Below are positions 3,501 to 63,845 of a stretch of DNA of 64,000 nt, in pieces. Source of the DNA: a virus. Its lineage: Duplodnaviria; Caudoviricetes. The position numbers were made by a program, and so were the translations under genes. A model generated the notes under the pieces. The model was not told the origin of the DNA. It saw nothing but the letters and a program-made list of their open reading frames with translations, and searched no databases. The stretch is taken from positions 10,243-74,242 of IMG/VR virus record IMGVR_UViG_3300034111_000674, one strand, 5' to 3'. Every line of letters starts with the position of its first letter. Positions within the stretch are counted from its first letter, which is position 1.

Positions 3501-6500
3501 AGAGCTAAAGATTGAAATGGAGCGTAAGAGACTTCAAGATGAAAAGCTATTCCTTGAAACCAAAAAAGTACAGTTTGGCATATCAGAAGAAGAAGAAACT
3601 AAATTAAAGAATATCGGCAGCAGACTCCTAAACTTAGACAGACAGGAAAACATAGTAAAAGGCAGGGGATCACAAAGTTCCCAACAATTGGCCAGACAAG
3701 GAGCTGATGCAGATGTAATAGCCTTACAACAACGTTTTGAAGGTTTCAGAACAAGTTTAGCAGGTGCAGCTGCAAGTACAAAAGCAATCGATATAAAAGC
3801 AGAGTACGAAGTAAGAAGAAAAGTTTTTGAATTAAACCAAAAAGATTTTCAACTACAAGTAGACGCCGCAAACAAACAAAAAGATATAGCCTCTATAGTT
3901 AGTGGTATTTATGGTATTGAAAATCAAAGTGCTCTAAACGCAAAGATACAAGCCGAAAACACTGCCCAACAACTAACCGATGAAAAAACTAGAAGAGCTT
4001 TAGTAGAAGCGACAGATGAAAAAGCCGATCTATATGTAAGAGCATTAAATGAGGCTTCCAAAGCAAAGGGCAAACTAACCAAGCAACAAGAAAAAGAATT
4101 AGAAAATTTTAAGTTAGCACTAATAGAATCCGGCAGAGAAGTAGACAGATTTGACGAGGGATTAAAACTTCGCACTGAGCTCAAAAAAGTCAATGATGAT
4201 ATTCAAAAACAACAAAGCAAATCTGCAGGACTTGAAAAGGAAGCAGAATTTCAACAAACAAGCTTAAAAAATGCCGAAGAATTGGCAAAAATCTCCATTG
4301 ACAGTAAGAAACAAGAATTTGATGCTCTTGTTGCCGCAGGTAGACTTAGTGAAGAATATGCTGCTAATAGATTGGCTGATATTGCAGCTGAAACTCAAGC
4401 ATTGGCTGTTCAATCACAACTAAGAGAGGCAGCCGCAGTACGTGATGCAGCTCTGAGAGCAGCATTAAGTAAAGCTGCACAGGCAGAAATTGCTGGTGAA
4501 GATCAGGAGTCAATTACTGCCATTCGAGTTGCTGAAGAAACCCGAGCTATAGAAGCATACAACGCTAAAAAAGTAGCAATAGATGCAGCAAATAGGTCTG
4601 CAACTCGAGCTATTGAAATTACAAAACAGCAGAGCCTAGAAACAGCCAAACAAAACGAAGAACTCAAAAAGCAAGCAGAGATCCTAGGACTTTTCGAAGG
4701 CATTGCAGACACTCTAGGACAAGCATTTGGTAAGGCCGGTGAAGTGTTGGGTAAGTTTGTGGGTACTATTAGTCAAATAATTGACAACCAAGAAACCTAC
4801 AACAAAAAACGCGCTGAGCAATCTAGAATTATTGATGAAGTAGCCGAAAAAGAAAAATCTGGTTATCTAAGTGCTGATGACGTCGCCAAGATGAATCAGG
4901 CAACTAAAACTCGTAATGACTTGGACAAGAAAAACGCCAAAGACGAACTAACTAACAACGCAAAAATTTTGGGCAGCGCTAAAACCTTATTCAAAGAAAA
5001 AACAGCTGCTTATAAGATACTTTCAGGCATGGAAAAAGCTATGCACATTGCCAGATTGGTAATGGATGCCAAAGAACTTGCTTCAAATTTTGCCAAAACT
5101 GGTGTATCTTTAGTAGAGTCTGGTAAAAGAATGTTTGCCTATGGACAAGAAGCTATTACATCAGCACTTAGGCTACCACCTCCTGCAGGTTTTATAGCCG
5201 GAGCAGCAATGGCAGCTATTGTTGCCAGTATAATTGGTAAAACTATCGGTGGCAGCGTGTCAGCACCCGCACCTGGAAGCTCATCAGCCGATCGCCAAGA
5301 AACCCAAGGAACTGGAATGGCTTGGAGAGAGGGCCAAAAAGTTGAAACTGGTGGCGGAGTGTTTGGGGATTCAGAGGCCAAGAGTAACTCTATAAGAGAT
5401 TCCTTGGAAATGATCAAGGACAACTCTGTAGACGGCTTGAGCTATAATAACGAAATGGTGAACCTACTCACTAGTATTGATAAAAATATTGGCAAAGCTG
5501 CTGTAGGATTATTTGGTGTAAAAGGGCTACGAGCAAATACCGCGTTTGGCACTGTTGAAGGCACTAAGAGTGGTGGCGGTCTATTTGGCACCGGACTGTT
5601 TGCCAGTAAAACAACTAGTCAAATCACAGACAGTGGTATTTTAGTCAAAGGTACTTTTAGACAGTTAGCTGGTGAAATAGACGGTGCAGTTGTTCAATTG
5701 TACGAAGACGTAACTAAAACCAAGAAAACTTGGTACGGAAGAACTAAATCTTGGACTGAGAGAAGCACTACAGAAATGCCACAGGCATTACAGTATATAA
5801 ATGACATATTTTCTCAAAGCACTGAACTATTTATCAACTTAGGATCTAAATTAGATATGGGATCCGAACAGATCTATGCTGCATTAGACAATATGGGTTC
5901 AATAGATTTTGAAGGCTCTCTGCGCGGTTTAAAGGGTGAAGATTTTGAAAATGAACTTCAGGCATTAATAAGCACACAATTGGGCAATGCTTCTAGGGCT
6001 ATTTTTGGTACCCTAGTCGACGAGTTTAAGCAGTTTGGTGAAGATGCATTACAAACAGTTATTAGAGTACTTGATCAGACTGAAAAAGTCAACCAAGTAC
6101 TTAAAAATCTCAACGTAGCAGCTCCAACAGACAGATTACAAAATATCAGATTCGCTGATACTTTGGTAGAATTATCTGGTGGCATAGAAGAGTTTGTAAG
6201 CCAAAACAAGTTCTTTACTGAAAACTTTTTAACTGATGCTGAAAGACTAGCACCAATACAAAAAGCAGTAACAGAAGAACTTGGTCGTTTGAACCTGAGT
6301 TTTGTCGATACCAGAGAAGAGTTCAAAGCCCAAGTAATAGCGGCTTTAGCATTAGGTGATGCGGGTGCTGAACTATACACCGCACTGATGAGGTTAGCCC
6401 CAGGCTTTGCAGAAGTTACAAAAGAAGCCAAAGCTGCAACTGCTGAATTATCTGCCGAAGACCTAGTGGCTAAAATCAATCAAACCAGAGTTAAAGCCCT

Positions 6501-62778: not shown

Positions 62779-62807
62779 ATTATAAGTGTTTGGGTTGTGT
62801 TGTTCAA
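62779..62807 (-). promoter_or_regulatory. sigma70 promoter
   Basis: TTGAAC-N17-TATAAT. Confidence 0.8.
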
Positions 62808-62821
62808 ATGCAAAATTTTTG

Positions 62822-63023
62822 ACCATAACCAATCATACTCACAGCTGTTTAAGAACATTTAGTCCCCAGGATCGTCTAGGGCATTCAGTCCTCTCATACC
62901 TTTGGCATCGCCTCAAAAGTTCTAAACCCACCACAGGTTGTCGAGGAACTCGGTAGAGATAGGTATCACCCAGTGAGTCAGGCTGCTGGTTGGGCACTTT
63001 GCTCTCAGATGATTGGTTATGGT
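62822..63023 (-). ncRNA. ~200-nt rod-shaped RNA with central bubble (6S-like architecture, unassigned)
   Basis: Perfect 15-bp terminal inverted repeat plus nested helices whose G-U pairs favour the - strand. Confidence 0.5.
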
Positions 63024-63095
63024 GCCGCTTGAGGGACTCGAACTCTCGACCTACCGCTTACAAGGCGGTTGCTCTACCAACTGAGCTAAAGCGGC
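63020..63095 (-). tRNA. tRNA-Thr (anticodon UGU), CCA encoded
   Basis: GCCGCTT/AAGCGGC-A-CCA acceptor; anticodon arm ACCGC-CTTGTAA-GCGGT; TTCGAGT T-loop; 76 nt. Confidence 0.97.
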
Positions 63096-63100
63096 AAGTG

Positions 63101-63168
63101 GCACGACAGCCCATCCTGTTTTCGTCGTGCGCGGAGGCGGGTTCCTCAAGGGGGTGTACAGGCCCGCC
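63101..63168 (-). ncRNA. GC-rich two-hairpin/pseudoknot element immediately 5' of tRNA-Thr
   Basis: Stems GGCGGG/CCCGCC and GCACGAC/GTCGTGC; cross-pair CCTGT/ACAGG. Confidence 0.4.
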
Positions 63169-63226
63169 AATACAAGCACTAGTACTTTGAATACAGAGTA
63201 CCAGTCTTCTTTATCAGTGAAGTGCT

Positions 63227-63416
63227 AGTATTTTATAAACACACCGGGGACCACGGTGCGCACCGTACGGCCTGACCCGCGGAAGGTGTCTCGAGAATAC
63301 TCCGCATATATGTATTAAGTGGCGGTGTGCTTATAGAATACTATTTTATTAAGACACCGCACTTACAGAGGTAACGCGTACCACGGCTAGATCTCGCCTC
63401 AATGTCTTAATAAAAT
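63227..63416. repeat. Alternating-orientation ~17-bp motif (TATTYTATWAAG(C)ACACC) bracketing two small RNA-like inserts
   Basis: Copies at 63227-63245(+), 63324-63342(-), 63342-63358(+), 63403-63416(-); degenerate copy 63285-63301(-). Confidence 0.8.
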
Positions 63417-63741
63417 GCCACATGATTTGTAACAAGGACATGTGGCCAAACCCTGGCTCAGCTAGTTTTTTAGGCTGCTAGAGCGTAAACGCTGTCGTTT
63501 GCATTTAAGTTTTTGCTGTTTCGGATTGAGAAACCCCAACCCTACGGCTTTCACATTGCCGGGTTGCCGTCTTCACTATCTCACGCTGTCGAAACCACAT
63601 CCGGCCCATCAAAAACATATTAGTACACAGTTTTCCCATTTCAGGTTTTAGAGTACCTTATCGGGCTAATATGCTTTTGGTGGACCGGGGCGGGAATGAT
63701 CCGCCGTCCAACATGCCTTCGATCTGACAGAATTACAACCA
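63417..63741 (-). ncRNA. ssrA: tmRNA, circularly permuted two-piece gene: acceptor piece ~63741-63678, intervening segment 63677-63608, coding piece 63607-~63417
   Basis: Acceptor stem GGGCCGG/CCGGTCC-A-CCA with G3-U70; GGTTTCGAC 5' motif; GAC + T-arm; tag ORF 63502-63470 ANDSVYALAA*; the CCA end lies upstream of the 5' end. Confidence 0.93.
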
Positions 63742-63746
63742 TATTC

Positions 63747-63845
63747 TACTACAATCGGGACTCGAACCCGTATGCGACCCGTTCTTCCTGGCCTGTCTAC
63801 TCTGTATCCGGATTTAGGAGTAAACTATCGGTGTTCCAGTGTAGT
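63747..63845 (-). ncRNA. tRNA-like element (non-canonical anticodon arm, long variable region, no CCA)
   Basis: ACTACAC/TTGTAGT-A acceptor-like stem; GAAC/GTTT D-like stem; CGGG-TTCGAGT-CCCG T-arm. Confidence 0.5.

Follow-up and report, generated by a model that had tools for sequence, protein, structure and literature searches.

What lies between two RNA genes of an uncultured phage, where a short AT-rich motif recurs in alternating orientation and brackets GC-richer inserts? We addressed this question for positions 63169-63416 of a 64,000-nucleotide stretch (the window), which covers the final 64 kb of an IMG/VR virus contig of 74 kb (IMGVR_UViG_3300034111_000674) from an uncultured T5-like phage. 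The segment is the spacer between two minus-strand RNA genes called by ARAGORN and Rfam, a circularly permuted transfer-messenger RNA (tmRNA) and a tRNA-Thr(UGU), and must therefore be read on the minus strand; this sense strand of both genes is the functional strand of the array. On it the order is permuted tmRNA, cassette C, cassette B, cassette A, element X, tRNA-Thr and cassette D. We consider it probable that the segment consists of three small-RNA cassettes in tandem (C, B and A), each self-contained and closed by its own stem, within transcribed sequence that separates tmRNA and tRNA-Thr. Comparison with other phages shows the A, B and C cores to be single-copy, accessory, phage-specific modules with predicted RNA structure. 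Their parts are as follows, with z-scores comparing the fold to dinucleotide shuffles.

63343-63416, minus strand: cassette C, with a perfect 14-bp closing stem (arms 63416-63403 and 63356-63343), z = -3.3.
63402-63357, minus strand: cassette C core, two hairpins, GGC/GCC with loop G-AGAUCU-A, and GGUA/UACC.
63226-63342, minus strand: cassette B, a three-way junction with P1 arms 63342-63323 and 63246-63226, z = -3.5.
63322-63306, minus strand: conserved strand of cassette B, CCACUUAAUACAUAUAU.
63305-63300 with 63285-63279, minus strand: cassette B P2, GCGGAG with CUUCCGC.
63289-63296, minus strand: palindrome UCUCGAGA in the cassette B P2 loop, a candidate kissing-loop dimerisation site.
63272-63249, minus strand: cassette B P3 hairpin.
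63169-63232, minus strand: cassette A, a three-way junction with closing arms 63232-63221 and 63180-63169, z = -3.2.
63225-63176, minus strand: cassette A core, with P2 CUUC/GAAG and P3 ACUGGUACU/AGUACUAGU.

A sequence-only reading of the window had proposed a modular array of stem-closed, GC-richer structured inserts, and our analysis supports this. The 17-mer TATTTTATAAACACACC, at up to three mismatches, has four matches in the 64-kb window, three of them at 63229-63358; the chance expectation is 0.57 and none of 100 shuffles reached four. The repeat is thus present as claimed, with three copies at two mismatches or fewer within 130 nt and a further 14-nt partial copy. A repeat search recovered the proposed 19-bp stem as 21-nt arms (63226-63246 / 63323-63343, 90% complementary) and the 14-bp stem at 63343-63356 / 63403-63416 (100% complementary). 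It also recovered the mutually exclusive palindrome, in which the adjacent arms 63322-63340 / 63342-63360 are 79% complementary over 19 nt. The 12-nt stem 63169-63180 / 63221-63232 is found in the sequence and on folding, with one mismatch. Direct arm copies at 63226-63246 and 63339-63359 are 86% identical. The arms are UUAAGACA/UGUCUUAA in cassette C, which starts immediately after hp1, the 3' hairpin of the tmRNA coding piece, and UAUAAGCACAC/GUGUGUUUAUA in cassette B, whose 3' arm has 7 nt in common with cassette A. Closing stems measure 14, ~19 and ~11 bp in the window and about 6-22 bp elsewhere; RNase III processing hairpins of the T7 type have about two turns of double-stranded RNA.

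On sequence comparison, the repeated AT-rich motif is the set of arms of these predicted closing stems, in the local form of a stem consensus of the phage group. The loose arm consensus is CCAUAU..AAGCAYAC // GURUGCUU..AUAUGG, and the window arms AUUUUAUUAAGACA and AUUCUAUAAGCACACCG, with their complements, are local versions of it. The +,-,+,- order noticed earlier is real, and the alternation is that of the 5' and 3' arms of successive hairpins; adjacent arms can pair with one another only because all resemble the same consensus. A single protein-binding or recombination site does not account for the motif, since the arms differ in sequence in other phages and retain only the loose consensus.

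Exact-pattern scans of IMG/VR and metagenome contigs yielded about 75 distinct instances of cassette B. RNAalifold, run on a MAFFT alignment of 43 copies, recovered P2 alone because the variable P3 displaces the 3' arm, and P1 and P3 were therefore tested alignment-free. The 5' and 3' flanks belonging to the same instance form a duplex of -25.6 kcal/mol on average, compared with -12.4 kcal/mol when flanks are taken from other instances, and pairing within an instance is the stronger by 5 kcal/mol or more in 73 of 74 cases, with 59 distinct arms. P1 is context-specific in sequence, yet complementary in 73/74. The P3 hairpin was found in 69/74 instances, in 45 distinct sequences. Near-invariant are P2 (GCGGAG/CUUCCGC) and the junction strand CCACUUAAU.AAUAUAU.

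Of 59 distinct P2 loops of cassette B, 49 contain a perfect palindrome of 6-10 nt, always at the same offset (16% for shuffled loops), and about 15 different palindromes occur. Between near-identical contexts the loops differ by symmetric double changes (TCTAGA/CCTAGG; TCCGGA/TCGCGA; TGCCGGCA/TACCGGTA; GCTCGAGC/GCTGCAGC). Six false pattern matches for B, by comparison, held only a 6-nt palindrome, two 4-nt palindromes or none. Since a palindrome of 6 nt cannot fold into a hairpin within one molecule, and variation of this kind would not be expected of a protein-binding site, pairing between two copies of the RNA is the simplest explanation. The palindromes in cassette B suggest kissing-loop dimers, and cassette C probably self-pairs via a palindromic loop as well: its first loop is G-AGAUCU-A in the window, and every other copy has G-AUGCAU-A. 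We also considered whether palindromes are a general property of tmRNA intervening segments (IVS) and rejected this, as 9 of 34 IVS types carry a palindrome of at least 8 nt and 7.7 would be expected.

Both inner hairpins of cassette C show compensatory changes (L073 variant). Its core forms the tmRNA IVS in six contigs (L021, L029, L047, L125, L126, L130). A loose pattern for C gave 7 true copies among 99 matches, the remainder being mostly chance. For cassette A, the same scans as for B gave 26 distinct instances. Over ten distinct sequences, 98.7% of cells are paired, compared with 25-45% when the 3' partner is slid, and compensatory changes occur at nine pairs, of which the context-specific closing stem accounts for six and P3 for three. 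G.U pairs in cassettes A and B occur only on the tRNA-sense strand.

The cores appear at several kinds of site in related T5-like phages: as a tmRNA IVS, as a trailer past a tRNA CCA, in a tRNA or tmRNA leader, and upstream of a protein gene. Cassette B serves as the IVS in 10/77 instances; its other sites are the spacer from tRNA CCA to tmRNA, tRNA-to-tRNA spacers, and positions 40-200 nt upstream of protein genes with a Shine-Dalgarno (SD) sequence and ATG. Cassette A is the IVS in 10/26 instances, and otherwise lies just upstream of tRNAs (L088, L089) or elsewhere (L095). The succession of B directly followed by A recurs, as in the window, in an unrelated context in L163, and B is also present in L167, a phage with an alphaproteobacterial-type tmRNA. 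Wherever a copy of A, B or C has a tRNA or tmRNA gene within 200 nt, the two share a strand. tmRNA genes that have diverged in their own arms still carry identical A cores, and the constancy of A and B in such genes argues that these cores are more than filler.

Two other roles for cassette B were considered and rejected. It does not appear to be coding, as the ATG in AUAUGCGG lacks an SD sequence and the frame end varies among copies, nor is it the leader of one gene class, as the downstream open reading frames (ORFs), judged from their N-terminal sequences, are mutually unrelated. These ORFs resemble a GIY-YIG nuclease, a homologue of the window's DNA-binding protein, and Clp-like, tail-fibre-like and cytidylyltransferase-like proteins. 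A GIY-YIG homing-endonuclease-like gene, judged by N-terminal sequence, is located at L132:2306-2929 on the minus strand, ~100 nt downstream of a tmRNA with cassette B as its IVS. Nucleases of this type may drive the mosaicism of the tRNA/tmRNA region.

The surroundings of the array are as follows:

63678, minus strand: CCA end of the tmRNA acceptor piece.
63608-63677, minus strand: tmRNA IVS, a hairpin closed by AAAGCAUAUUAG / CUAAUAUGUUUUU.
From 63607, minus strand: tmRNA coding piece, with its 3' hairpin hp1 at 63450-63417.
63417-63450, minus strand: hp1, from the Rfam RF01850 alignment.
63096-63168, minus strand: element X, two hairpins ending 5 nt before tRNA-Thr.
63020-63095, minus strand: tRNA-Thr (UGU), the downstream end of the array (ARAGORN; Rfam tRNA, 73 bits).
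62822-63023, minus strand: cassette D, with a perfect 15-bp closing stem (ACCAUAACCAAUCAU / AUGAUUGGUUAUGGU) that runs from the ACCA of tRNA-Thr and encloses 172 nt.

Among the loci fetched, the IVS is hypervariable and falls into about 34 unrelated types. Its closing stem base, CCA-NAAGYAYA..//..TRTRCTTYTGAT-GGG, is common to at least 30 of these types. In the window, the IVS stem is of the same kind as the cassette arms and the IVS core is unique to this phage; conversely, the C and B arms match the IVS-type closing stem (NAAGYAYA..//..TRTRCTT), a likeness judged by eye. The cores of A, B and C are themselves the IVS in 10, 10 and 5-6 distinct instances in other phages. The window's C, B and A lie outside the IVS position, at 63169-63416, downstream of the tmRNA coding piece. 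Some IVSs contain a small ORF of about 40-45 codons (L041 ~1699, L043 ~647 and, on the minus strand, L121 ~3509), that of L041 being preceded by an SD sequence (TAAGGAG..ATG).

A second class of hairpin starts at the end of tRNAs. Among 634 distinct tRNA 3' ends, 69 are followed by a hairpin of 30-250 nt whose 12-nt arm starts with the tRNA's own CCA (CCATATWWWARC..//..ATATGG), compared with 15 and 5 in controls. Cassette D is such a CCA-anchored spacer hairpin, and so is cassette B in many relatives; C, B and A in the window are internal units, not anchored to a CCA. In L073, a CCA-anchored cassette with an unrelated core occupies 1960-2042, between tRNA-Thr and tmRNA (CCATATCAAAACACTCT ... 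AGAGTGTTTTGATATGG). The window units group with the tmRNA IVS hairpin and the CCA-anchored spacer hairpins of tRNA clusters, to which the earlier reading did not connect them, and its opinion that no standard feature class explains them is not supported in that form.

We fetched 80 syntenic loci via the neighbouring DNA-binding protein and compared them by blastn. In L004, the tmRNA tag region leads straight to X, tRNA-Thr and D, without hp1, C, B or A. Five loci (L002, L003, L005, L006, L007) carry hp1-B-A-X, and cassette C is an addition of the window only; it is missing from the closest relatives, L002 and L003, and had no match in the five relatives searched for it (G001-G005). The junction of the C indel between the window and L002 falls within the motif, and the single arm of L002, ATTTTATAAACACACCG, can be aligned with each of the window's two direct arm copies, of which it seems to be a hybrid. 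These presence/absence differences between close relatives, together with the same cores in very different contexts, bear out the earlier suggestion of exchangeable cassettes. In relatives the core is conserved, and the closing stems around it differ with the context yet still pair.

L002 is ~90% identical to the window around the tmRNA, yet has an unrelated IVS, and its tRNA-Thr (5505-5579, against window 63020-63095) is very different in an otherwise ~95% identical spacer. These differences in tRNA-Thr and IVS are fine-scale mosaicism of the tRNA region. The fixed portion of the spacer is element X, which every close relative has, L004 included; the fold of X is no better than that of shuffles (z = -1.0). 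An HDV-like (hepatitis delta virus) ribozyme fold of X was rejected, since the would-be P1.1 loop changes from UUGA to GAAA in relatives. Cassette D is common to the window and L004, and a search of 62822-63023 against Rfam gave no 6S match at E <= 1.

On the window tmRNA, Rfam places RF04321 at 63470-63740 (117 bits) and RF01850 at 63411-63779 (100 bits), both on the minus strand, and the encoded tag is ANDSVYALAA. Directly upstream of the acceptor piece, at 63747-63845 on the minus strand, is a tRNA-like remnant with a good T-arm (CGGGTTCGAGTCCCG), which is kept in L002 and is not called by ARAGORN. Left of the array lies a T5-like gene set of DNA polymerase, primase, DnaB-like helicase, D5-like regulator and a split NAD-dependent ligase. 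Of 24 related T5-like contigs scanned with ARAGORN, 22 have a predicted permuted tmRNA, some lineages having the inverse order of tRNA-Thr and tmRNA. In L016 (104-551), L037, L061, L064 and L068, the calls begin within the upstream tRNA-Thr (25-nt overlap); as the true acceptor piece is downstream of the ARAGORN start in these five, automatic tmRNA boundaries are unreliable there.

Beyond these relatives, distant-mode blastn of 63096-63480 and 63400-63800 against GenBank phages (INPHARED) gave no match, and with megablast against INPHARED phages the tRNA-Thr was the sole match; by these searches the sequences are missing from cultured phages. In 185,579 bacterial and archaeal genomes, cassette A had no match and cassette B gave one Paenibacillus 20-mer only, which we regard as chance because the rest of the motif is missing and no tRNA is nearby. 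No Rfam 15 family covers A, B or C at E <= 1 in the window or at E <= 10 in 7 other loci, and a full-text search of the literature for the A and B core sequences turned up no paper.

Release of small RNAs from one precursor is plausible in view of the strand-specific conservation, the covariation and the stems that abut mature CCA and 5' ends. The array would be co-transcribed with the tmRNA and tRNA-Thr, and each closing stem would set the 3' end of the upstream RNA beside the 5' end of the downstream RNA, as the IVS does in the tmRNA gene. tRNA-processing nucleases could then excise a cassette to give a discrete RNA of about 60-120 nt, with RNase P acting at 5' ends, and RNase E or III together with 3' exonucleases acting at the CCA or inside the stems. 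Cassette B, and probably C, might subsequently join a second copy of itself through the palindromic hairpin loop as a kissing dimer. At the DNA level, the similar arms may provide recombination homology by which cassettes are moved or deleted between co-infecting phages; recombination of this kind would explain both the cassette swaps and the hybrid arm in L002.

Several points weigh against this proposal. Transcription of the array, excision and dimerisation are all steps that we infer. Copy numbers come from exact patterns, from which diverged copies would escape: by these, cassette B is single copy in G000-G004, G010, G012 and G014, including complete genomes of 102-124 kb, and cassette A is single copy in G001 and G005. 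Three complete genomes with terminal repeats lack cassette B, and A and C are found even less often, which means that none of the cassettes is essential. The stems cannot all coexist, since the B and A arms overlap by 7 nt and the C 3' arm can pair with the B 5' arm. With closing stems of ~6 to 21 bp, a single nuclease such as RNase III would be insufficient. Finally, an IVS as variable as this one, with its 34 types, is compatible with much of the sequence being tolerated cargo.

Parts of the evidence also fit selfish palindromic elements acting at the DNA level without RNA function, either similar to miniature inverted-repeat transposable elements (MITEs) or recombination cassettes of the kind of the promoter early stem-loop (PeSL) elements; their inverted repeats would serve insertion or recombination only. 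Presence or absence in close relatives is clean, with junctions inside repeats, the common consensus of the arms could supply homology, and the same sites hold hypervariable cargo, including small ORFs in some IVSs; PeSL-mediated shuffling is, moreover, documented in T4-type phages (PMC2839356, PMC4122927). We nonetheless regard such elements as unlikely, though they deserve some weight. The cassettes occur once per genome and only in the sense orientation, whereas MITEs and PeSLs are many-copy and MITEs insert in either orientation. G.U pairs are tolerated on one strand only, inner helices covary around invariant loops and junction strands, and A cores are identical where the surrounding tmRNA arms have diverged. 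Segment 63169-63416 also lacks any sigma-70 promoter-like or minus-strand terminator-like site, the sole promoter match being at 62779-62807. This same absence of a promoter match speaks against the idea that the cassettes are promoter modules, in which the 3' arm would be an extended -10 promoter for the next gene and the hairpin incidental. Such modules would account for the TGnTATAAT/TGnTAAAAT in the 3' arms of several B copies ~7 nt before the 5' end of a tmRNA or tRNA, or before an SD sequence and ATG (L031, L015, L118, L117), and for cassette B always lying upstream of a gene in the same sense. They would leave unexplained the covarying inner helices and palindromic loops, the occurrence of the same cores inside the tmRNA IVS, a site that needs no promoter, and the single copy per genome; we find them quite unlikely.

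One or more cores might instead be small self-cleaving ribozymes that separate the tmRNA pieces or free tRNA ends without host nucleases. HDV-like theta ribozymes, which adjoin phage tRNAs, provide a precedent, and the three-way junctions of A and B have strongly conserved junction strands exactly where cleavage would be needed. We judge this very unlikely: no Rfam 15 ribozyme matched even at E <= 1-10, cassette A by eye lacks the hammerhead G8 (CUGAUAA, not CUGAUGA), and more than 30 unrelated IVS types at the same site cannot all be ribozymes. That the array is a chance cluster or a local duplication scar of no wider meaning is extremely improbable. The AT-rich arms are low in complexity and the C arm may derive from a duplicated B arm; against this stand three motif copies in 130 nt where 0.57 would be expected in 64 kb, fold z-scores of -3.2 to -3.5, and dozens to about 75 independent homologues in other phages, so that the comparative data refute it.

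The spacers and IVSs of tRNA and tmRNA precursors, usually deemed throw-away, hold conserved, covarying, phage-specific RNA modules here, and these modules travel whole between tmRNA genes of very different kinds, the trailers of tRNAs and the leaders of genes. They add three candidate RNA motifs outside Rfam 15, of which B is the strongest, with about 75 examples, three supported helices and ~15 self-complementary loop variants. Should the RNAs be released and dimerise, they would represent a new phage route to small-RNA expression off the host tRNA-processing machinery. For annotation, alternating AT-rich inverted repeats next to phage tRNA/tmRNA genes are best taken as cassette stems, not as terminators or transposon ends. 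Tentatively, and with more doubt than confidence, we suggest that in aquatic phages the 'discarded' portions of tmRNA and tRNA precursors (IVSs and CCA-anchored hairpins) serve as a plug-in platform for expressing and swapping small RNAs, of which B, and probably C, would form a new homodimeric class with a lineage-specific kissing loop.

Among known systems, one of the closest is the IVS of the circularly permuted two-piece tmRNA, whose gene forms have been reviewed (PMC11915505; Rfam RF04321, RF01850). As is proposed for the cassettes, the IVS is a hairpin spanning from a CCA end to the 5' end of the next mature RNA, and tRNA-processing enzymes remove it. In related phages the cores of A, B and C are themselves the IVS, and the window arms resemble the IVS stem base (AAGCAYA/URUGCUU). 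The window cassettes differ in lying outside the tmRNA, in tandem and downstream of its coding piece. In the literature we found, the IVS is absent from mature tmRNA and odd cargo is reported in single cases only (a tRNA-Ala; a repetitive element), with no account of conserved structured modules common with tRNA spacers. Phage tRNA clusters also produce stable RNAs, namely species 1 and 2 of T4 (rnaC/rnaD) and those of the T5 tRNA region, which are non-tRNA RNAs co-transcribed with tRNAs and freed by tRNA-processing enzymes. Likened by description, these too are small non-tRNA RNAs within phage tRNA clusters; we know of no context-specific bracketing stems, site-to-site movement or tmRNA IVS location for them.

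The PeSLs of T4-type phages are short conserved intergenic motifs that border indels and swaps and are thought to be the homology for modular shuffling (PMC2839356, PMC4122927). In contrast to the array, they are many-copy promoter/terminator composites flanking protein genes; the array is single copy, has no promoter or terminator match, and its conserved part is the RNA core rather than the flank. Bacterial palindromic elements such as Correia/NEMIS, enterobacterial repetitive intergenic consensus (ERIC) sequences and the Rickettsia palindromic elements are ~100 nt long with terminal inverted repeats, are inserted in transcribed non-coding sites and form RNA hairpins. Some bacterial miniature palindromic elements carry outward promoters or RNase III sites. 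These elements are multicopy and occur in either orientation, unlike A, B and C, which are single copy, sense only, and have covarying inner helices. For the loops, parallels are palindromic kissing loops such as the dimerisation initiation site (DIS) of HIV-1, a hairpin loop with a 6-nt GC-containing palindrome between unpaired bases that varies between lineages yet stays self-complementary. The molecule and its biological setting are different, and dimerisation of B and C is predicted from their sequences. As in the DIS, the loop palindrome of cassette B (6-10 nt) varies and remains self-complementary, and that of cassette C does the same with AGAUCU vs AUGCAU.

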